A stretch of 64,000 nt of DNA, from IMG/VR virus record IMGVR_UViG_3300028581_000034. The stretch is one strand, 5' to 3'. Positions within the stretch are counted from its first letter, which is position 1; each line of letters starts with the position of its first letter. This stretch comes from an uncultured virus (IMG/VR IMGVR_UViG_3300028581_000034) (lineage: Duplodnaviria > Heunggongvirae > Uroviricota > Caudoviricetes). The position numbers and the translations under genes are program-made. Under the pieces are notes generated by a model. The model was not told the origin of the DNA. It made no database searches and worked only from the letters and a program-made list of their open reading frames with translations. Below are positions 27,412-59,660 of the stretch, in pieces.

Positions 27412-28422
27412 TTAATTGTTTAATTGTTTGTATTTGCGTTTTTCTTTTCTTGTGAGTTTGGTAAAAGGTTTCATAAAATTAACAAAGGCATCATCGTCCT
27501 TGGGTTGGTATTTAAAAAAACCATCTTCCATCATTAAACGGATTAAGTTTTTATTATCCCTACCCTCAGGGTCTAATGTTTCAGAATAGTAAAGGGTGAC
27601 AAACTCTTTTGCTTCATCTGTGATGATGGGGTTTCTAAGGTCCACAATTTTTTGATTAATTCTGAAGAATTCATCGCCAATCTGTCCTTTTTTTGTTTTT
27701 CCATTTTTAATATTTTGTAAAACTGTTTCTTTTCTATTTTCGGAAATTAACTTGTCTGTCCTTGTACAAATATCGGAAACAGTTAATACATTATCAACAA
27801 TCTCAGGAAATAATTTGACAAAAGTTTTTTCACCAAGACGGTCAATACCAAAGATATTATCCGACTTGTCACCCAAAAAAACTTTAACAACAAGAACGTT
27901 TTGGTGAGGTATGTGAACATCACCAAACTTTATCTTGTCTCCGTAATTATAACTGATTTTCTTGATTGGAGAATAAATGGAAGTATTCTCCGAAATGATT
28001 TGTAAAAGGTCACGGTCTGATGAAAAAACAACCTTTTCTTCGTCTGTCGCTAACGAACAATAATAGGCTATCAAATCATCAGACTCATTACCATCAATTT
28101 CAATCTGACGAACAAAACACTCTTCGAGATATTGTTTAACTCTCGACTTTTGGAAGTAATATGACTCAAGCTTGGCTTCAGTCATATCATTCCTTCGGTT
28201 TAATTTGTAGTCAGGATATAACTCACGTCTTGATTGTGAGTTGTTTTTGCCATCCCAAAAGACGATGACTTTGTCGAATTCGTTTTCGTCCAACTGGCGA
28301 CGAATGGTGTTGATGAAGTGAAATACCCCGCCAATGTGTTCGCCTTCCACGAAAAAGTCTCTGACTCCGTGGAAACCGATTTTAAATAAGTTATCTCCAT
28401 CAACTAATAAAGTTTTGACCAC
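27412..28422 (-). CDS. 5'-3' exonuclease / T4 RNase H (FEN-like)
   Basis: LLVDGDNL, FWDG, YPDYKLNR, ESDDLIA, SSDRDLLQ and GDKSDNIFGI..LGEKT. Confidence 0.92.
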   Translation of the reverse strand: MVKTLLVDGDNLFKIGFHGVRDFFVEGEHIGGVFHFINTIRRQLDENEFDKVIVFWDGKNNSQSRRELYPDYKLNRRNDMTEAKLESYYFQKSRVKQYLEECFVRQIEIDGNESDDLIAYYCSLATDEEKVVFSSDRDLLQIISENTSIYSPIKKISYNYGDKIKFGDVHIPHQNVLVVKVFLGDKSDNIFGIDRLGEKTFVKLFPEIVDNVLTVSDICTRTDKLISENRKETVLQNIKNGKTKKGQIGDEFFRINQKIVDLRNPIITDEAKEFVTLYYSETLDPEGRDNKNLIRLMMEDGFFKYQPKDDDAFVNFMKPFTKLTRKEKRKYKQLNN

Positions 28423-28439
28423 AATTGTGATTTATAAAA

Positions 28440-29006
28440 TTAAAATTTTTTTCCTTTTTTGATATTTTCTGCAGCCCACAAAGGTTGCAGATTAGTATAA
28501 TGACACAACTTCAAAAGCTCTTCAACATTCTTGGCTGAGGATAAGGGGATAATGTGGTCAACATGCCATTCATTTCTTTTTTTCCAATTCATCCCCTCTG
28601 TAAATTTGCTTTCTAAAAAGTTTTTTAAAAAACTAGGAGAACAACCAATAATATCAAATGTCTTGTTTGTTTTTTTTATTTCAAATACATTCATATATTT
28701 CCATAATCTGCACCTCATTCTATTAGTCAAAACAAAGATTGGGTCAATTTTTCTTCTTTCTTTCCTCTGTTCTTGTTTTCTTTTTTTGTAATTTTGCCGA
28801 TACTGCTTTCTTTTATCAGGATTTTCTGTATAAAATTTTTTCAATCTTTCACCAAGCCACTTAGGATTTTTGGTTCTAAGAATTTTTTCAGATTTTTTTG
28901 TACATGTTTTACATTCAGGTCTAAAACCATCTTTTTTTGTACTGTCTTTTCGAAAATCAGAAGAATTCAGATGAAGGCCACATCTACAACAAACTTTAGT
29001 TTCCAT
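28440..29006 (-). CDS. Free-standing HNH (homing) endonuclease with N-terminal Cys4 Zn finger
   Basis: CCRC...DG..PECKTC and WHVDHIIPL...HYTNLQPLWAAENIKKG. Confidence 0.85.
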   Translation of the reverse strand: METKVCCRCGLHLNSSDFRKDSTKKDGFRPECKTCTKKSEKILRTKNPKWLGERLKKFYTENPDKRKQYRQNYKKRKQEQRKERRKIDPIFVLTNRMRCRLWKYMNVFEIKKTNKTFDIIGCSPSFLKNFLESKFTEGMNWKKRNEWHVDHIIPLSSAKNVEELLKLCHYTNLQPLWAAENIKKGKKF

Positions 29007-29148
29007 TGTTAATATATTCTTTTAATAATTTATTAACAAGGGAAGAAAGATTTATCGATTTATCTTTAAAATATTGTGGTAGTTTGGGGTCTATTGAGAC
29101 ACCAATCTTAACTTTCTTTTCAATATCTTCTTTTTTCTTTCTTCCCAT
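28996..29148 (-). CDS. 50 aa ribbon-helix-helix-like protein (copy 1); absent from ORF track
   Basis: MGRKKKEDIEKKVKIGVSIDPKLPQYFKDKSINLSSLVNKLLKEYINNGN. TATTTAT immediately upstream; paralog at 57731. Confidence 0.8.
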   Translation of the reverse strand: MGRKKKEDIEKKVKIGVSIDPKLPQYFKDKSINLSSLVNKLLKEYINNGN

Positions 29149-29199
29149 ATTAATAAATATCTACTAATATAATAAAAGTAGAATAATTACAACTTTTTT

Positions 29200-30207
29200 T
29201 TAATTATCTTCTTTTTCATCCTTCAAATCAAAATCACCATCAGTACCGATAATTTCTTTCCAATACTCCGCATATTCTGTTTTGTATTTTTCAATAGAGA
29301 TTTTTTCTTCCGCTGCGTCTTTACCCGCCAAGAACCCGTGTGGTGTTACAATTATCTTACCATCCTCATAACCCAAACCTGATATGTGATTTTTCATTAC
29401 AGATACTTTAGTTCTAATTGCGAACTTTACACTTCTTTTATCTTTAGTTGCTGTAATTTTGTTTGTTCCCGATTCTTTTTGATTACCAAATAAAAAAACC
29501 AAAGATGAATTTAACCAAATCGCCTCACCACCCTTACTTTTAATTTTAGGTTGCCCAAATGGATTATCAGGCAAACTCACCCAAGGCTGGTTGATTATAA
29601 CCAAAGTATTTTCGTACTTTGATTCCGATTTCCGACTTCCTGAAATACGTTGATTAATACCCATTCCAATTTTGTCTGCTAACACACCAGCATTTTGCAT
29701 CTTCCCGCCCTTACCTTCAAATGTCATCTTACAAGGGACCGAACCAACTGAATCCCATAAAAATAATAAATCATACTCCAATTCACCCTTTTCTTGTGCG
29801 TCAAGTAAAGAATTAATATAATCAGTAATTTCCTCAATATAACTGAAACCATTATTGAAGATAAAAAACCCATCCCAATCTATTTCACCGGTTTCTTCGT
29901 CAACTATTTCTTCACACTTAAATCCCATAAGGCGAGCATGTTCAAAACTCCACTTTTGTTCAGTAATAATGAAAACTGGGAGAATTTCTTTTTTTTGAGC
30001 ATCAACCGCTGCTTTTACTAAAGCAGTAGTTTTCCCGGTATCGGAATGTCCGAGAAACATATTAATGTGGCCAATTGCTGGTCCAGGGAGCCCTACCGCA
30101 TCAAGAAAATCAGTGCCCAAATCAAAAAATTTTTGAGGCTTATACTTTGCGGATGTTGAATATTTCTTCTTAAATGAAGAAAAATCAGTTGATTTCTTTA
30201 TTGCCAT
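29200..30207 (-). CDS. recA: RecA/UvsX-like recombinase
   Basis: GHSDTGKT, WDSVGS, IINQ, KSKGGEA and VMKNH. Confidence 0.88.
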   Translation of the reverse strand: MAIKKSTDFSSFKKKYSTSAKYKPQKFFDLGTDFLDAVGLPGPAIGHINMFLGHSDTGKTTALVKAAVDAQKKEILPVFIITEQKWSFEHARLMGFKCEEIVDEETGEIDWDGFFIFNNGFSYIEEITDYINSLLDAQEKGELEYDLLFLWDSVGSVPCKMTFEGKGGKMQNAGVLADKIGMGINQRISGSRKSESKYENTLVIINQPWVSLPDNPFGQPKIKSKGGEAIWLNSSLVFLFGNQKESGTNKITATKDKRSVKFAIRTKVSVMKNHISGLGYEDGKIIVTPHGFLAGKDAAEEKISIEKYKTEYAEYWKEIIGTDGDFDLKDEKEDN

Positions 30208-30421
30208 TATATTTCCAGAATTCAGTTAATACTTGTAATTTGTCGCTGGCATTTGCCAACTTTTCAACCATGTTATCCATTTCTTCCAACATCTGAGGGT
30301 GTTCGCCAATCCCTGCAGCGTTTTCAAGGTAAATCATCATAGTCGCTTCCGCTTCCAAAATCTGAGACTCATATTTTTTTTTGAGACTGTCTATCGCTTT
30401 TTGTCTGGTTTCTTTTGTCAT
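30185..30421 (-). CDS. Hypothetical helical phage protein (GIGEHP motif)
   Basis: 78 aa, YLENAAGIGEHPQMLEEMD; overlaps the recA start. Confidence 0.7.
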   Translation of the reverse strand: MTKETRQKAIDSLKKKYESQILEAEATMMIYLENAAGIGEHPQMLEEMDNMVEKLANASDKLQVLTEFWKYNGNKEIN

Positions 30422-30459
30422 AATTTTTTTACTAATAATTCTACTATAAAAAATATAGT

Positions 30460-31002
30460 TTATAATACATTTTTTCCTAATGATTTTTGAATAAATTCCA
30501 AATGTTTATTTTTAGTATCAAGAATAACCCCACCTATTGTTGAGTAAATCATTTTTTCTTTATTGTAAATCAAATATCTATGAATTAAATTATGTTCTTT
30601 AATGGAAAGTTTTATAACGTCTAGCCAATCCACTTGATTATAAGACCAATGGTGTAAATGAAAACCTTGTTCTTTTGTTAAAAAAATTTCTGTATATTTT
30701 GCCGCTAGATATTTTTCAGGAAACTTTTGTCGATATCTTTTCATAATATTTTTCTTTTTTTCAGTAGAAGGTTTGTTTTTATCCTTATACCCAAGCCTAT
30801 GATATTTTTCGCGATTTCTTTCCCTCTCTTTTTCAATCCATTCAGGATTTTTTTTTAATTCCTTAATTCTTCGTGAAGTATCTTTGATTGTACATTTTTT
30901 ACACTTATTTAAATGACCATCAGGCATTTTCTTATGAACATAAAATTCTTGTATTGGTAAAATATTACAACACTTAAAACACTTTTTTTCAGTAATTCCC
31001 AT
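30460..31002 (-). CDS. Free-standing Zn-finger + HNH-like endonuclease
   Basis: KKCFKC...EFY...DGHLNKCKKC and HLHHWSYN...IKLSIKEHNLIH. Confidence 0.7.
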   Translation of the reverse strand: MGITEKKCFKCCNILPIQEFYVHKKMPDGHLNKCKKCTIKDTSRRIKELKKNPEWIEKERERNREKYHRLGYKDKNKPSTEKKKNIMKRYRQKFPEKYLAAKYTEIFLTKEQGFHLHHWSYNQVDWLDVIKLSIKEHNLIHRYLIYNKEKMIYSTIGGVILDTKNKHLEFIQKSLGKNVL

Positions 31003-31064: not shown

Positions 31065-31931
31065 CTAAAATGGCAAATCTTCATCGGGTGTTGAATCAGC
31101 CTGAGGGTCCGTGTACGTTTTGTTTGCTGTGGTACTTGTCATACCACCGCCGTATGATTCAGTGGAAGCCTCTTCATTACCATAGACGTATCCACCTTTA
31201 TCACTATCCCAACGTGGAACTTCACCACGAGCGATTGACTCAAGATATTCAACAGGTTTCTTAGAATAAACATCTAACCATGTCATCTCATTTTCAACCC
31301 ACCCTTTCAATACTTTCATATCTTCATGAATAGGTGCTGCGTCTTCATACATAATAGTTGATACGGTCGTGTATGCCGCTCCTTTAGGAGTCTTTTGCTT
31401 ACTCAATTCAATGATAAGGTCACGTCCTTTTTCAGGGTCGGTGATATCACCTTTGTTTCTCCAAATAGGGATGATTTTATCAAGAATACCTTCATTCTTG
31501 TAGTTATGTTTGAATCTCCAAAACTTCACACCGTCTTCTTCGTGGTCACGGTCAATAACCTTTACAATATAGAATTTACGTGATTTGTACTGTTTAGCCA
31601 ATTCTTTGTCAGATTCTTTACCTGTTGACATAAGTTCTTCATATACTTCGTTCAATGGTGAACGCTCGTTATCATTTTTTCCTGGGTCGTAAAATTTTTG
31701 CCATTTTCCACCTACTTGGATTTCATGGTACCAAGCCTCTTTAAAAGGTGAACTACCATCTATGGTTGGGAGGATTCGGATACGTCGTGTTCCTGAGTTT
31801 GATTTCTCATCAAGAATAAGAGCGAAGTATTTCTTCATTCTTTCTTCTGATGACATACGGTTTTCTCCGCTTGAGCTGTTTTTCTGTGATTGTTCGTACT
31901 GTGCAAGTACTGCGTCTAATGATGTTGTCAT
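31065..31931 (-). CDS. Single-stranded DNA-binding protein (T4 gp32-like)
   Basis: RIRILP...PFKEAWYH, ITDPEKGRDLII and acidic tail DEDLPF; sits in the replication block. Confidence 0.85.
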   Translation of the reverse strand: MTTSLDAVLAQYEQSQKNSSSGENRMSSEERMKKYFALILDEKSNSGTRRIRILPTIDGSSPFKEAWYHEIQVGGKWQKFYDPGKNDNERSPLNEVYEELMSTGKESDKELAKQYKSRKFYIVKVIDRDHEEDGVKFWRFKHNYKNEGILDKIIPIWRNKGDITDPEKGRDLIIELSKQKTPKGAAYTTVSTIMYEDAAPIHEDMKVLKGWVENEMTWLDVYSKKPVEYLESIARGEVPRWDSDKGGYVYGNEEASTESYGGGMTSTTANKTYTDPQADSTPDEDLPF

Positions 31932-54748: not shown

Positions 54749-54821
54749 ATATTGATAAATACATTCTTATTTATTATATTTAATTTGTTTGTGTATAAAC
54801 CTACGTACCAATAAATACGAG

Positions 54822-57683
54822 ATGGGAATTAGTCTTACAATAGAATCCAAAGCAATTACAGCACTTGAAAGTTATGACGGCGCAAATAACTATATTTTTA
54901 ACCTAAAACACAAACTTCAATTAAATCCTAAGTTTTATCCAACAAGGGCTCAATCAGAATATATTTTAACCAACAAAGACAAGACCCCCAAGGTTGCGAA
55001 AAAGTGGGTGGTTCTTGATTCATACTTTGCAAACAAACTCGCCAACGATAAATTTCTTCTTCAGATTCCTGAGAGGATTTGGGTTGAAAAACTCTTGGCT
55101 GAAAAAGACAAAGCCTATCATGTGTGGGGTAAGTTTTTTGAAACGGATTCATTTACCGATTTTTGGATTCCCAAAGCATCTTTGATTAAAGACAATAAAG
55201 TTGAAATTAAAGAAATTGATTATTCTAAGTATTCACACCGTCCTCCGTTAGACCACCAAAAAGTTGCCATAGAAGAACTCTTAAAAAATAAAAAGTTTAT
55301 TTTGGCAGACGATATGGGACTCGGGAAATGCGAACCAAAAAATAACAGGGTATTTACCCCATTTGGTAGAAAAAATATTGGGGATATTAAAGTTGGGGAT
55401 AAGGTTATTGGTCGTGATGGCAAACCTCATAATGTAATTGGTGTATTTCCACAAGGCGTAAAAGAAACTTATAGAATAACATTTAATGATGGATTTTCAA
55501 TTTTAACGGGAGACGAACATCTATGGTCAGTTTTATCACCTAATTATGGTAAAAATACAAAAAACGATAGACGAAAAAAATCTTTAGTTCTTTCGACAAA
55601 GCAAATGTATGAGGGTGGTAAAATTAAAGTTAAAGGTATTGATTATAATAAAGATAAGGAATATGAGATTGAAACTTATTACAAATCACCAAATAGTAAC
55701 AATAAATGGCAAATCCCTATTGTAGAACCGATTCAATTTGAACGTAACGACAATCTTCCAATTAATCCTTATTTTTTAGGATTGATTTTAGGGGATGGAC
55801 ATATAAATAAATCATCCTGTGTTTTTACAGTACACTGTGACGATTATGATGAACTATTTGATAGTTTTGGTTTGAATGAAAATAAAAAAATTAAAAATCA
55901 GAGAAAAGGAATTAAATTAATCGGTAGGGATGTGTTGAACGGACTCAAACTAAACGAAACACGTTCCCATAACAAATTTATTCCAGAAATATACAAATAT
56001 TCATCAGTTGAAAATAGACTGTCAATACTACAAGGACTAATGGACACTGACGGTCATTGTATGTTTAATGGTGGTGGAAAGTTTTTAGGAACTGAATTTA
56101 GTACCATTTCAAAACAACTATGTGATGACGTTGTTGAAATTGTACAAACATTAGGTGGTATTGCAAGAGTAAAAACTCGTATTCCAACCTATACTTATAA
56201 TGGTGAAAAAAAGAAAGGTAAGTTAGCCTATAGGGTTAATATTAAATTACCAAAAGGAATGAACCCATTTAAATTAAAAAGAAAGGCAAATAAATATATT
56301 GAACCAAAAAAATACCCAACAGGTAGGTATATTAAAAATATTGAGAAAGTTGGTTTTGAAGATAGTGTTTGTATATCGGTGGATTCTCCTGATAAGTTAT
56401 ATGTAACTGAACATTGTATTGTTACACATAACACAACATCAACAATCATCGCTGCGTTGGAGACGGGGTCTAAAAAGATTTTAATTATTTGTCCGGCAAC
56501 TCTTAAGATTAACTGGCAAAGAGAATTCTTATTGTATTCTGATAAGACAAGTTATGTTTGTGATGGTAAGAACTTTTCTGAGAATCACGACATTTTGATA
56601 ATGAACTACGATATCATCAAAAATTTCCACGATACAAAAGACAACGAGAAATCTTTGATTTTTAAATCAAAGTTTGATTTGGTTATCATTGATGAGGCTC
56701 ACTATGTTCAAAACGTCCAAGCTCAAAGAACCAAACTAATTAATGATTTGGTTAAGAACGTGGATAGACTATGGTTGTTAACGGGTACTCCTATGACCTC
56801 ACGACCCATCAATTACTTCAATCTATTGTCATTGGTGGATTCACCCGTGGCAAAGAATTGGATGGCTTACGTGGTTCGTTATTGCTCGGGTTACCAATTC
56901 AAAGTTGGAAATAGAAAAGTATGGAATGTCATGGGAGCATCAAACTTGGAGGAACTCCGAGACAGAACTGGTTCAACAATATTAAGACGCCTAAAAGATG
57001 ATGTGTTGGATTTGCCAGAGAAGATTATCACCCCAGTTTATTTGAGATTGCGGTCCAAGAACTACGAAGAGCTAATGGGTGAATACTATAACTGGTATGA
57101 AAAAAACCCGGAGGAAAGTAAAAACCTTTCAATCCAATTTACAAAATTGATTCAAGTGCGTCAGTTGATTGCCGATGAAAAAACTCAGCACACCATCGAA
57201 CTTGCCGAAAACATCATCGAGCAAGGAAAGAAGGTTATTATCTTTTGCAACTTTACCCATTCCCTTGAAATCATTTACAATCACTTTGGAAAAGCTGCGG
57301 TTCGTTTGGATGGGTCGATGAGCAAAACACAACGTCAGGATGCTGTGGATAGGTTCCAGGAAGATGAAAAGGTAAAAGTTTTTGTGGGTAATATAAAGGC
57401 TTCAGGAACCGGAATCACTCTAACCGCCGGTGAAGCTGTTATAATGAATGATTTATCATTTTTACCTTCAGATATGGCACAAGCTGAGGATAGGGCCTAC
57501 CGATACGGACAAAAGAACAATGTTCTCGTATATTACCCATTGTATGAAAATACTTTAGAGATGATAATTTATAACATTGTGAATTCAAAAAAGAAAATTA
57601 TATCAACTGTAATGGGGGATGTGAATAACGCAACAGATGCCGCCGAAGAAATTCTGAAAAGAATTTATGAAATGAAAAAATAA
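54822..57683 (+). CDS. SNF2-family (SWI2/SNF2, HARP-like) helicase/ATPase containing an intein; ATG 54822 preferred over GTG 54789
   Basis: ILADDMGLGK|T, ICPATLKINW, IIDEAH, LTGTP, ILRRLK, GITLT and QAEDRAYRYGQ. Confidence 0.92.
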   Translation: MGISLTIESKAITALESYDGANNYIFNLKHKLQLNPKFYPTRAQSEYILTNKDKTPKVAKKWVVLDSYFANKLANDKFLLQIPERIWVEKLLAEKDKAYHVWGKFFETDSFTDFWIPKASLIKDNKVEIKEIDYSKYSHRPPLDHQKVAIEELLKNKKFILADDMGLGKCEPKNNRVFTPFGRKNIGDIKVGDKVIGRDGKPHNVIGVFPQGVKETYRITFNDGFSILTGDEHLWSVLSPNYGKNTKNDRRKKSLVLSTKQMYEGGKIKVKGIDYNKDKEYEIETYYKSPNSNNKWQIPIVEPIQFERNDNLPINPYFLGLILGDGHINKSSCVFTVHCDDYDELFDSFGLNENKKIKNQRKGIKLIGRDVLNGLKLNETRSHNKFIPEIYKYSSVENRLSILQGLMDTDGHCMFNGGGKFLGTEFSTISKQLCDDVVEIVQTLGGIARVKTRIPTYTYNGEKKKGKLAYRVNIKLPKGMNPFKLKRKANKYIEPKKYPTGRYIKNIEKVGFEDSVCISVDSPDKLYVTEHCIVTHNTTSTIIAALETGSKKILIICPATLKINWQREFLLYSDKTSYVCDGKNFSENHDILIMNYDIIKNFHDTKDNEKSLIFKSKFDLVIIDEAHYVQNVQAQRTKLINDLVKNVDRLWLLTGTPMTSRPINYFNLLSLVDSPVAKNWMAYVVRYCSGYQFKVGNRKVWNVMGASNLEELRDRTGSTILRRLKDDVLDLPEKIITPVYLRLRSKNYEELMGEYYNWYEKNPEESKNLSIQFTKLIQVRQLIADEKTQHTIELAENIIEQGKKVIIFCNFTHSLEIIYNHFGKAAVRLDGSMSKTQRQDAVDRFQEDEKVKVFVGNIKASGTGITLTAGEAVIMNDLSFLPSDMAQAEDRAYRYGQKNNVLVYYPLYENTLEMIIYNIVNSKKKIISTVMGDVNNATDAAEEILKRIYEMKK
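55329..56432 (+). mobile_element. 368 aa intein with LAGLIDADG homing endonuclease, inserted in Walker A of the SNF2 helicase
   Basis: Begins CEPKNNRVFTP, block B TGDEHLW, LGLILGDG and LQGLMDTDG, ends IVTHN followed by Thr. Removal restores DMGLGKTT. Confidence 0.95.
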
Positions 57684-57686
57684 AAT

Positions 57687-57700
57687 TGTGAATATTCACA
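57687..57700. promoter_or_regulatory. Perfect 14-bp palindrome upstream of RHH copy 2 (candidate operator)
   Basis: TGTGAATATTCACA, 30 nt before ATG 57731. Confidence 0.45.
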
Positions 57701-57730
57701 CTTTTTTATAATTGCAAATATTTATTTATT

Positions 57731-57892
57731 ATGGGAAGAAAAATTAAAGCTGAAGATGAAAAAAAAACAAAAGTATCTATTGCCCTAGATAGAGAACTTT
57801 TAAATCATTATAGAACCCTTCATGTGAATTTGTCTTCTTTAGTTAATAAATTGCTGAAAGATTACCGAGATGAAGGAAACAAAAAAATGTAA
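57731..57892 (+). CDS. 53 aa ribbon-helix-helix-like protein (copy 2); absent from ORF track
   Basis: MGRKIKAEDEKKTKVSIALDRELLNHYRTLHVNLSSLVNKLLKDYRDEGNKKM; 25/50 identical, ungapped, to 28996-29148. Confidence 0.8.
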   Translation: MGRKIKAEDEKKTKVSIALDRELLNHYRTLHVNLSSLVNKLLKDYRDEGNKKM

Positions 57893-58118
57893 TAAATGTA
57901 AAATTGAAAAACTAATTTGTGAATTCGGAAATAGGGCAAAATCCAGCGATGGTAAAAGAAGCTCTTGCAAGACCTGTGATGCTGAAGACACCAGGAAGTG
58001 GAGAAAAAATAACAAGGAAAAAGTTTGTGAACATAAAAAAAATTACGAAAAAAAATACCCAGAAAAAAAAATAGAAAAAGATAATTTAAGAAAATCCAAC
58101 AAAGCTGATTATTTATAA
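57870..58118 (+). pseudogene. Zn-finger N-terminal part of an HNH endonuclease, nuclease domain missing
   Basis: KKCNKC...EF...SDGKRSSCKTC...RKNN matches the N-terminus of 28440-29006 but stops at 82 aa with no HNH motif. Confidence 0.6.
58110..58117 (+). promoter_or_regulatory. TATTTATA putative late promoter (SOD fusion)
   Basis: 16 nt before ATG 58134; the motif switches strand with the gene. Confidence 0.6.
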
Positions 58119-58133
58119 TCAAACAATAAGACC

Positions 58134-59660
58134 ATGGAACATATACAAGAGCAAGTCAATAAAATACAAGAGCAAATAGTCCACGAACAAAAAAAAGAAG
58201 AGGTTAAAGTTCTAATCAAAGAAATGAAAAAAATCGGAATTGAGAAACTTCCGTACGCCTATTCAGCCATCAGTAGATTTATTGACCCCGAAACAATGGA
58301 TGTTCATTACAACAAACATTACAAGGGTTACGTTAACAAATTAAATCAACTACTGAAGAAAAGAAAAGGTGACCAAGACCTTGAAAAAATAATCAGAAAC
58401 ATTTCTCGTTATCCAAAAGGTATCAGAGATAACGCAGGTGGTGCATTTAACCACGCTTTGTTTTGGAATATGTTAACACCAAAACAAATGAAGATTACCA
58501 CAGAGTTGGAAGATATTATCAAGAAAGACTTTGGCACCTATGAAAAATTCAAACAACAATTTGAAACCGTTGCAAAAGAAAGATTCGGTTCAGGTTGGGT
58601 GTGGTTGGTATTAACCAACAAAGGGACACTAAAAATTATGTCCACCCCAAACCAAGACAATCCACTGATGAACATTATTGAAGGTGGGGGTTATCCGTTG
58701 TTAGGATTAGATGTTTGGGAACATGCTTATTATCTCAAATATAAAAATAAGAGAGATGAATACGTTAAAAACTTTTGGTCTGTAATTAATTGGGATTTTG
58801 TCACTAACTTGTACAAAATGAAAACTGAAACCTCATTATTAGAATCTGTAGAAATGGGAAAATTTTTGAATGAAACAAAATCCGAAGGATGTTCACGAGA
58901 AGACATTGAAACTTATCGTGTTCTATTTAACGTGAACAAAAACGCAAGAAACATCTACAAAAACACAATCATCAAAGTTCAACAAAAAGTTTTTGCTGAC
59001 AAGTATCACACCAAAAGAGAAGATGGTGAAATACCTGGTGTTTACAATTTAGAAAAACCAGGTCGTTCAGTTATCAACTATATGAACACAAACTACTCGG
59101 TTTTCTGTATCATGGTTAATGATTTAAATAAAGTTATTCAAGGTAAGATGGGTCAAGAACCAATATCTTTTGAATTGAAGACTCCCGCTGAACAGATTAT
59201 TGAAATGAAGAGAATGTGTAACTACATTGAAAAGTTCCAAGATAGAATTTTCTCAAAAACATCACACACATTTAAGAATATTATGGCAACTCTCAAAGAA
59301 AAAGATTCCATCGGAATTAAACGAGAAGAGATGGCAAAAAAAGTTTTGGAAACTAAATTACCTGAAACTACCGTTGAAATTGTCGCGGGTGCGGGTAAAG
59401 AGAAAGATGCTTACAAGAAAATTGATTTAGAAATTATTCACAAAGGAAGAAAAATTACCGCACAGGTAAAAGGTTTTGATGAACTTATTCCCGAGGATGA
59501 AAAGTTAGTTGTCACAAAAACAGGAGAAATTGACAAATATAAAGTTGATTGGATGGTTTTTATTCGTGGTAAAAATGTTTTAGTCTTTAGAAACCGACCT
59601 GAAATAGTTCTTGGTCAGTATGTATTTGACAAGAACGACTTATTATACCACATTAAGTAA
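58134..59660 (+). CDS. sodA: Fe/Mn superoxide dismutase (Mn-type signature) fused to a C-terminal nuclease-like domain
   Basis: KLPYAY, HYNKH, GGAFNHALFW, FGSGWVWL, NQDNP and DVWEHAYY, plus about 280 extra aa with IDLEI...TAQVK. Confidence 0.88.
   Translation: MEHIQEQVNKIQEQIVHEQKKEEVKVLIKEMKKIGIEKLPYAYSAISRFIDPETMDVHYNKHYKGYVNKLNQLLKKRKGDQDLEKIIRNISRYPKGIRDNAGGAFNHALFWNMLTPKQMKITTELEDIIKKDFGTYEKFKQQFETVAKERFGSGWVWLVLTNKGTLKIMSTPNQDNPLMNIIEGGGYPLLGLDVWEHAYYLKYKNKRDEYVKNFWSVINWDFVTNLYKMKTETSLLESVEMGKFLNETKSEGCSREDIETYRVLFNVNKNARNIYKNTIIKVQQKVFADKYHTKREDGEIPGVYNLEKPGRSVINYMNTNYSVFCIMVNDLNKVIQGKMGQEPISFELKTPAEQIIEMKRMCNYIEKFQDRIFSKTSHTFKNIMATLKEKDSIGIKREEMAKKVLETKLPETTVEIVAGAGKEKDAYKKIDLEIIHKGRKITAQVKGFDELIPEDEKLVVTKTGEIDKYKVDWMVFIRGKNVLVFRNRPEIVLGQYVFDKNDLLYHIK

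Follow-up and report, generated by a model that had tools for sequence, protein, structure and literature searches.

Two copies of an RHH-nuclease cassette

The 64,000-nucleotide (nt) stretch analyzed here (the window; IMG/VR record IMGVR_UViG_3300028581_000034, from an uncultured virus of the class Caudoviricetes) contains two copies of a small cassette in which a gene for a ribbon-helix-helix (RHH) protein overlaps the start of an open reading frame (ORF) encoding a Zn-ribbon. Copy 1 is located on the minus strand between uvsX, which encodes a RecA-like protein and forms the left flank (29200..30207, minus), and rnh, which encodes a 5'-3' exonuclease/RNase H and forms the right flank (27412..28422, minus), with a gp41-like helicase gene beyond. 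Its leader of 51 nt (29149..29199, minus) extends from the uvsX stop codon to the ATG of the RHH gene and comprises an A-run, a box, GTTGTAATTATTCTAC, that we regard as a candidate operator (29178..29193, minus; columns 26-41 of the leader alignment), TTTT and the invariant GATATTTAT (29153-29161, minus), which ends 4 nt short of the ATG. There follow, all on the same strand, the gene for RHH1, a bare RHH domain of 50 amino acids (aa) with the predicted DNA-facing strand residues V, K, G and S (28996..29148); the gene for HNH1, a 188-aa protein composed of a Zn-ribbon, a helical region and a C-terminal HNH (beta-beta-alpha-Me) domain (28440..29006); and the 17-nt right end of the insertion, from the HNH1 stop codon to the GTG of rnh (28423..28439).

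Copy 2 lies 28.6 kb away on the opposite strand, downstream of an SNF2 helicase gene that contains an intein (54789-57683, plus) and upstream of a gene for a superoxide dismutase (SOD) fusion protein (58134-59660, plus). Its 47-nt leader (57684..57730, plus) includes TGTGAATATTCACA, a perfect 14-bp palindrome (57687-57700, plus), followed by CTTTTTT and ATATTTAT; RHH2 (57731..57892, plus) has 53 aa and the strand residues T, K, S and A, and the overlapping 82-aa Zn-ribbon ORF (57870..58118, plus) is a nuclease remnant without an HNH domain.

A preliminary description of this DNA had pointed to the 50-aa gene and its 11-nt overlap with the HNH start, to an opposite-strand paralogue sharing the peptide NLSSLVNKLLK, to the same register of overlap in both copies and to similar leaders, and all of these observations were borne out. 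The ORF coordinates place the RHH1/HNH1 overlap at 28996-29006 (11 nt); the corresponding overlap in copy 2 is 23 nt. RHH1 and RHH2 are identical at 25 of 50 residues (E 5e-17), and the back-translated NLSSLVNKLLK pattern matched these two genes only, with 0 matches expected from 100 shuffles. In both copies the RHH frame translates the hexamer GGAAAC as G-N and the nuclease frame translates it as E-T, the peptides at the overlap being NGN-stop and METK in copy 1 and EGNKKM-stop and MKETK in copy 2, and the Zn-ribbon N termini are recognizably related (19/65 identical, E 7e-6). The two leaders align with each other, and the motif CTTTT-N8-16-TATTTAT occurs across the 64 kb in just these two places.

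A selected gene for a bare RHH domain

Profile and structural comparisons agree with the earlier proposal that the small ORF encodes an RHH protein. Against the RHH part of the Pfam CcdA family (PF07362; cut-off, 22.4 bits), RHH2 scored 26.9 bits and RHH1 21.4 bits, and both copies matched the Arc-like repressor family PHROG 3180 (E 0.0012 for RHH1), as expected of a member of the RHH family. An AlphaFold2 model built from an alignment of 92 relatives (predicted local distance difference test score [pLDDT], 86.5) contains an extended segment at residues 11-21 and helices at 22-29 and 34-47, a predicted strand-helix-helix topology of about 45 residues that is consistent with the RHH superfamily. 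Structural neighbors of the model found with VIA-align were almost all solved RHH proteins, among them omega, ORF56, NikR, DinJ, RelB, AmrZ, PutA, SvtR, Arc and ParG, with Z values of 2.3-4.0, which the small size of the domain keeps low in absolute terms; Foldseek returned no match for the model, and sequence searches of the PDB with the RHH profile and with HNH1 gave spurious matches only. Across 108 distinct genes the median ratio of nonsynonymous to synonymous substitution rates (dN/dS) was 0.21, indicating purifying selection, with the strongest constraint in helix 2. On the strength of the profile matches, the structural neighbors and this dN/dS value, the small ORF is a real, selected gene whose product has a basic N-terminal tail and is otherwise a bare RHH domain; at 50 aa the protein has no room beyond the DNA-binding fold.

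The best Pfam matches are to the antitoxin families CcdA and BrnA, and a protein search for relatives recovered 248 clusters, all metagenomic, labeled either "hypothetical" or, by JGI, "post-segregation antitoxin". The CcdA match spans profile positions 1-36 (RHH1) and 1-34 (RHH2) of 71, and the proteins stop 3-8 residues later. The full metagenome label, "post-segregation antitoxin (ccd killing protein)", suggests toxin-antitoxin (TA) modules for lytic phages that probably have none, a routine annotation that would be corrected if RHH is indeed a repressor.

An intact nuclease and a decaying one

HNH1 matched phrog_1035, annotated as endonuclease VII (5e-22), and retains 20/20 of the columns that are invariant in a 68-sequence alignment of the family, including C6, C9, C32, C35, D150, H151, H169, N172 and N181; the DH...N...N motif and all four cysteines of the Zn-ribbon, invariant in the 68 relatives, are therefore present, in keeping with the original designation of copy 1 as intact. 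Its Pfam HNH match fell below the cut-off (13.3 versus 21.4 bits). In the AlphaFold2 model (pLDDT, 91.4) a Zn-ribbon is followed by four long helices and, at the C terminus, a beta-beta-alpha unit, and the top Foldseek rows were HNH domains, all with E > 0.1 and none significant. From its sequence, HNH1 is predicted to belong to a homing-endonuclease family of nucleases and to have kept the catalytic residues; copy 2 is without the domain. The copy 2 ORF comprises the Zn-ribbon and a portion of the helical region before it stops, and since relatives carry full-length nuclease genes at the same site (a 222-aa ORF with an HNH match in L086 and L087; a 785-nt insert with an HNH match in L278), copy 2 is a decayed cassette. 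A prediction of the HNH1-RHH1 complex gave no answer (score 0.00, mark 0.32) and is evidence neither way. A programmed frameshift joining RHH to the nuclease was considered and rejected, as no slippery site was seen and no fused relatives were found.

Linkage of RHH and nuclease genes in relatives

Two RHH-anchored scans of IMG/VR gave at least 137 and 280 confirmed relatives, from each of which the best 80 were kept; after removal of identical stretches, 117 distinct cassettes remained, 116 of them assessable. The record nearest to the window (G001), with 99.97% identity over 27496-30648, represents the same phage and is not independent. The preliminary description had called for a search of phage metagenomes for nuclease genes linked to the RHH gene, and such linkage was found: a Zn-ribbon ORF overlaps 112/116 assessable RHH genes, its start being placed in a constant frame relative to the RHH gene, 11 to 35 nt within it. 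The overlapping gene encodes both Zn-ribbon and HNH domains in 95 of the 117 cassettes, is cut by the contig end in 10, is truncated in 5 and in 2 (L011 and L146) specifies a nuclease with Zn-ribbon, NUMOD3 and TnsA-like domains; directly 3' of the RHH gene are an intein-bearing C5-methylase gene in a further 2 (L009 and L013) and the resident downstream gene in 2 more (L098 and L125), and a single RHH gene reaches the contig end.

Linkage is less tight when viewed from the nuclease. Among the best 80 HNH-anchored loci, 39 have an upstream RHH gene and 41 do not; in L429 and L454 the HNH gene begins 2 nt past the uvsX stop codon with no RHH gene. The RHH gene, for its part, is kept where the nuclease is truncated or gone in 7 of the 116 assessable cassettes, as it is in copy 2 of the window.

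These data bear on the suggestion that the RHH protein is an antitoxin, neutralizing the HNH protein by direct contact, besides or instead of repression, and rendering the cassette addictive. The operon layout, with a small RHH gene placed first and overlapping a potentially toxic nuclease gene, the antitoxin families among the Pfam matches and the JGI label would all suit such a pair, and in CcdA/CcdB and other type II TA systems with RHH antitoxins the RHH gene likewise comes first and overlaps the second gene, a layout that is not specific to TA. The CcdA match is, however, restricted to the RHH part of the profile and the protein ends there, without a toxin-binding extension; there is no CcdB-like partner, heads and nucleases reassort freely, even onto another nuclease fold (TnsA-like in place of HNH), half of the nuclease relatives lack RHH, and a lytic T4-like phage would offer no obvious setting for postsegregational killing. 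The size of the protein, the partial CcdA match, the exchange of partners and the RHH-less relatives thus weaken this part of the earlier proposal; a TA-like pair is very improbable and an antitoxin role is unlikely.

A tblastn search of GenBank phages with RHH1 gave no match, and a search of GenBank phage DNA gave only matches of approximately 70% identity between the 3' part of the HNH gene and HNH genes of Flavobacterium phages, a weak hint that the host may belong to the Bacteroidota. Among 185,579 cellular genomes, 1 of 37 pattern matches was a relative, situated on a 2.2-kb contig of a metagenome-assembled genome. When IMG/VR was scanned with the leader motif, 4 of the 80 matches fetched were real heads (leader plus RHH gene) and the remainder look like chance; in L338 and L353 the match stands directly 5' of a Zn-ribbon nuclease-like ORF without RHH, where either chance or head-less variants may apply.

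Certain relatives have additional DNA methylase genes. A C5-cytosine DNA methylase gene directly follows RHH in L009 (322-2460), L010 and L013, the L009 enzyme containing an intein with a LAGLIDADG domain (Pfam), and a C5-methylase gene follows the HNH gene in seven loci (e.g., L140, 1087-2151); the gene order behind RHH or HNH in these relatives resembles that of restriction-modification (R-M) systems.

Insertion polymorphism at both sites

A comparison of empty and filled sites had been proposed as a check on mobility. An rnh-anchored search provided 80 loci, 71 with upstream sequence, and in 71/71 of these uvsX abuts rnh across a gap of 3-102 nt, with no leader, RHH gene or nuclease gene; in 11 of them rnh is 95-100% identical to that of the window and the gap is 3-5 nt. 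Comparison of the junctions defines the copy 1 insertion as exactly 28423-29199, with the first dozen bases of rnh re-spelled. Of the 80 loci from an SOD-anchored search, 66 are empty at the SNF2-SOD site, 11 have another insert without RHH and 3 hold the cassette, 2 of these 3 being the window's own near-identical records. The empty sites, together with the occurrence of the cassette in at least five genomic contexts, show that it is not fixed at the two loci throughout its relatives. The element is real, recurrent and insertion polymorphic: at both sites it lies between two genes and its presence varies among close relatives, and leader, RHH gene and nuclease gene are either all present or all absent when the window is compared with its closest relatives. 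A contig from a freshwater metatranscriptome (run X1) joins 28409 to 29209, skipping 799 nt and having 30 other letters between, and represents the empty uvsX-rnh form of a relative.

A different insert at the SNF2-SOD junction, of about 402-410 nt and without RHH, was seen in 10 relatives (L290, L295-L298, L300-L303 and L306; ~2590-2990); in L290 it contains a small ORF in which the sequence HEWVH resembles an HExxH motif.

Mobility and modularity of the head

Clustering of flanking genes for 153 cassette instances, duplicates retained, identified uvsX as the upstream gene in the majority, the others being genes for a metallophosphatase, a DnaG-type primase, an SNF2 helicase and a family B polymerase (PolB), together with singletons, so that at least five contexts are represented. 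A tree of leader-plus-RHH DNA (109 rows) required 12 changes of context, against a minimum of 5 and 25-29 in shuffles, and near-identical heads occupy different contexts, as in L105 and L109. In 55 distinct uvsX-cassette-rnh loci the mean identities were 70% for UvsX, 75% for RHH, 47% for HNH and 64% for Rnh; the identities of adjacent segments were almost uncorrelated (Spearman 0.11-0.26), and identical RHH proteins were paired with HNH proteins only 43-45% identical to one another.

The claim that leader, RHH and nuclease move as one unit consequently holds in part. In the lineage of the window the entire cassette is gained and lost as a block, as its presence or absence at both sites shows. 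Over longer times head and nuclease behave as separate modules, as judged by the low correlation between segments, the changes of context and the identical RHH proteins beside divergent HNH proteins; the head recombines with other nucleases, 41/80 HNH relatives have no RHH gene, and RHH can outlive the nuclease.

It could be argued from the nearly constant co-encoding and apparent translational linkage of the two proteins, from the DNA-binding fold of RHH and from the position of the box at the insertion junction itself that RHH is an accessory of the nuclease, binding near the target or insertion site and either recruiting the nuclease or shielding the DNA of the carrier. The modularity described above makes this quite unlikely: the same head type is found at five sites with different flanks, one nuclease type occurs with different heads, identical heads accompany the 43-45% identical nucleases or TnsA-like ones, the headless relatives do without such an accessory, and none of the three longer proteins found in a search for RHH-nuclease fusions was fused to a nuclease (0/3).

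A conserved leader with a candidate operator

In 111/111 distinct leaders the sequence starts at the upstream gene's stop codon and TATTTAT is located 11-14 nt 5' of the ATG; the order of elements is an A-run, a variable box of 14-16 nt, (A)CTTT(T), a variable stretch and TATTTAT. The leader is missing from relatives with empty sites, including the 66 empty SNF2-SOD loci. In several types the box is palindromic about one fixed center, as in TGTGAATATTCACA of copy 2 and in TTGTTAAAAATAACAA and GTAATAAAATTATTAC of relatives, whereas its symmetry is weak in other types, that of copy 1 among them; compensatory changes in dyad pairs were found at 3 positions. The residues predicted to point outward from the RHH strand, assigned by inference to its positions 2, 3, 5 and 7, track the box: the adjusted mutual information between box cluster and these residues was 0.675, compared with 0.352 for helix A, 0.491 for the N-terminal tail and 0.178 for genomic context. 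The strand type TKSA is found with the box TGTGAAT.ATTCACA in five contexts. Such co-variation would be expected of a repressor-operator pair, in which the paired strands of an RHH dimer would bind the major groove of the DNA, but could also result from physical linkage.

A different function for the head is suggested by the PeSLs, composite terminator/promoter motifs that are reported to mediate modular shuffling in T4-like phages (Comeau et al. 2014, PMC4122927; Arbiol et al. 2010, PMC2839356). The head might similarly be a mobile regulatory and recombination cassette in which A-run, hairpin and T-run terminate transcription of the upstream gene, the conserved 3' part restarts it and the conserved head DNA serves as a homology patch for shuffling, with RHH regulating other targets, such as host genes or phage genes nearby. 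The leaders of L101 (z -4.4) and L071 (z -2.6) fold much better than shuffles into such a terminator-like A-run/hairpin/U-run structure, and the near independence of adjacent segments, the pairing of heads with different nucleases, their movement between sites and the survival of RHH after nuclease loss are all compatible with this function. The leaders of the window, however, fold no better than shuffles (z -0.81 and -0.40), a terminator scan of both cassettes found nothing above shuffles, and neither the tracking of RHH strand residues by the box above other parts of the protein nor the tight coupling of RHH to the nuclease start codon (112/116) would be explained. We consider it unlikely. 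The PeSLs resemble the head as short conserved regulatory sequences placed by variable genes and serving as exchange points; they are noncoding, whereas the head encodes a protein with which its box varies.

Counts in the window of TATAAATA and of TATTTAT variants indicated no phage promoter class; these are counts only, with no test of enrichment.

A putative autorepressed homing-endonuclease cassette

We suggest, with a probability of roughly 55%, that each copy is a free-standing cassette of the HNH homing-endonuclease type in which RHH acts as an autorepressor through the leader box and the nuclease is translationally coupled to it. Such a cassette, inserted exactly where two conserved genes of DNA metabolism meet in a T4-like phage, would have as its portable head a leader of approximately 50 nt and an RHH gene of 50-53 aa, situated ahead of the nuclease. 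The leader would contain the cassette's own promoter, and RHH dimers, by binding the often dyad-symmetric box, would stop transcription of both genes after a short pulse, the overlap meanwhile tying translation of the nuclease to that of RHH. Repression and coupling together may limit the amount of a nuclease that could damage its own carrier and leave the neighboring genes undisturbed. Copy 1 would be a complete example and copy 2 a decaying one that has lost the nuclease domain and kept the leader and RHH. A repressor function had been among the original proposals, and it is the reading that best accommodates the co-variation of box and strand, the RHH fold and the overlap.

Several observations weigh against autorepression. 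The dyad of the copy 1 box, as read from the leader alignment, is weak (4/8 pairs), and overall only 59.6% of cells pair, compared with 56.7% in shuffles; when the dyad was slid, pairing ranged from 27 to 57%, with 56.8% at a slide of -3. Box and strand are 30-60 nt apart and coinherited, so that physical linkage alone could yield their co-variation. A sigma-70 promoter scan of both leaders found nothing beyond shuffles, and the Bacteroidetes -7 promoter consensus was exact in 11 of the 111 leaders and had one mismatch in 67. The terminator-like leaders of some relatives point in the same direction, as do the 41 HNH relatives without RHH, which indicate that the nuclease does not need it, and the RHH genes that outlive the nuclease, which may point to a role other than governing it. 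Two metatranscriptome runs, both holding a small share of the window's words, yielded contigs on the uvsX and rnh flanks only and none on the cassette, and so provide no evidence of expression.

The layout, in which a portable RHH gene, probably a dedicated regulator, accompanies a free-standing homing endonuclease gene, is present in hundreds of related phage fragments. A literature search for an RHH, CopG or Arc gene paired with a phage homing endonuclease produced no description of the cassette, which accords with the earlier statement that the element is not a described one. The closest parallels are found in phage T4, where promoter choice, RNA hairpins, translational coupling and, for I-TevI, autorepression regulate homing endonuclease genes (Edgell, Gibb & Belfort 2010, PMC2988022). 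The seg and mob genes of T4-like phages, like the cassette, place a nuclease (HNH in the case of mob) between conserved DNA-metabolism genes, are present or absent among relatives and have their expression limited by promoter choice, overlap or translational coupling. In the parts of that review drawn on here they are single genes and a separate regulator is unmentioned, whereas the cassette, a putative homing element, has an RHH gene and a conserved leader that can be swapped between nucleases. I-TevI likewise limits its own transcription through a DNA-binding module at an operator in its own promoter (PMC2988022); there the repressor is the nuclease's own DNA-binding domain, whereas here a separate 50-aa protein would perform this task.

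A second parallel is the RHH protein "Arc" of IS605-family transposons, which binds the promoter of their nuclease/transposase genes and represses it (Moon et al., bioRxiv 10.64898/2026.09.24.754181). Like the protein studied here, Arc comprises about 50 aa and is carried by a selfish element. The same report mentions in passing that arc genes also adjoin homing endonuclease genes; its subject, in the portion drawn on here, is bacterial insertion sequences with TnpA/TnpB in another gene arrangement, and the phage cassette, the Zn-ribbon overlap and the leader are not described there. No methyltransferase gene adjoins either copy in the window, which distinguishes them from R-M systems governed by C proteins; some relatives do have a C5-methylase.

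The C proteins of R-M systems are helix-turn-helix proteins that often act as activators first and serve a methylase/nuclease pair; the protein of the cassette has an RHH fold instead. In C.PvuII and related systems (PMC2175313, PMC2997769, PMC2647307), a small regulator gene likewise lies just 5' of the nuclease gene, which it often overlaps and with which it is cotranscribed, and its product controls its own promoter through palindromic boxes there.

If autorepression by RHH is correct, a separate, swappable microrepressor with its own operator would constitute a new layer in the taming of selfish nucleases. The natural series of strand/box pairs would be a source of small, mutually orthogonal repressor-operator parts and would allow the RHH recognition code to be tested, and the cassettes would document the shuffling of modules around core replication and recombination genes in uncultured freshwater T4-like phages.

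An extension of this model, which we offer tentatively, is that the head is an independently mobile governor of expression, combining promoter, operator and repressor, that moves by gene conversion among selfish nucleases (HNH and TnsA-like) and sites, and that its repressor-operator specificities, of which there may be at least six strand/box types, have diversified so that cassettes can coexist in one genome without cross talk. The copies in the window fit such a governor, VKGS being found with GTTGTAATTATTCTAC and TKSA with TGTGAATATTCACA.

In three relatives (L088, L090 and L105) there are two cassettes per 8-kb locus; the heads of L088 and L105 differ in strand/box type, as do those in the window.

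Neighboring genes

On the uvsX side of copy 1 lie gp32 (31065-31931, minus), a third Zn-ribbon nuclease-like gene of 180 aa (30460-31002, minus) and a 78-aa ORF, followed by uvsX. The third nuclease-like gene is without RHH and is missing in close relatives, L151 having ~205 nt instead of ~960 nt at this position. Its 62-nt leader contains two hairpins (-27.7 kcal/mol, z -7.8), the second a 17-bp stem ending 3 nt 5' of the AUG, that resemble hairpins masking the start sites of homing endonuclease genes in T4.

The segment comprising uvsX and the 78-aa ORF (29196-30385, minus) shows 73-75% nucleotide identity to relatives that match the window at 89-97% in gp32 and in the rnh-gp41 region. The uvsX allele beside copy 1 is 74.6% identical at the nucleotide level, versus 96-97% in the flanks, and because uvsX has diverged while the flanks are alike, the gene between the two nuclease genes is a swapped allele. 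The UvsX protein is 83-88% identical to those of the nearest relatives with empty sites; its best matches come from one empty locus (L173, 94% aa identity) and one filled locus (L001, 92%), and the idea that uvsX was coconverted with the cassette was dropped, the nearest alleles not being specific to filled sites.

At the other site, the intein of the SNF2 gene has Hint and LAGLIDADG homing-endonuclease matches (Pfam), placing a further selfish element immediately 5' of copy 2. The SOD fusion protein encoded downstream is 508 aa in length, with an Fe/Mn superoxide dismutase in its N-terminal half and approximately 280 C-terminal residues without a family match.

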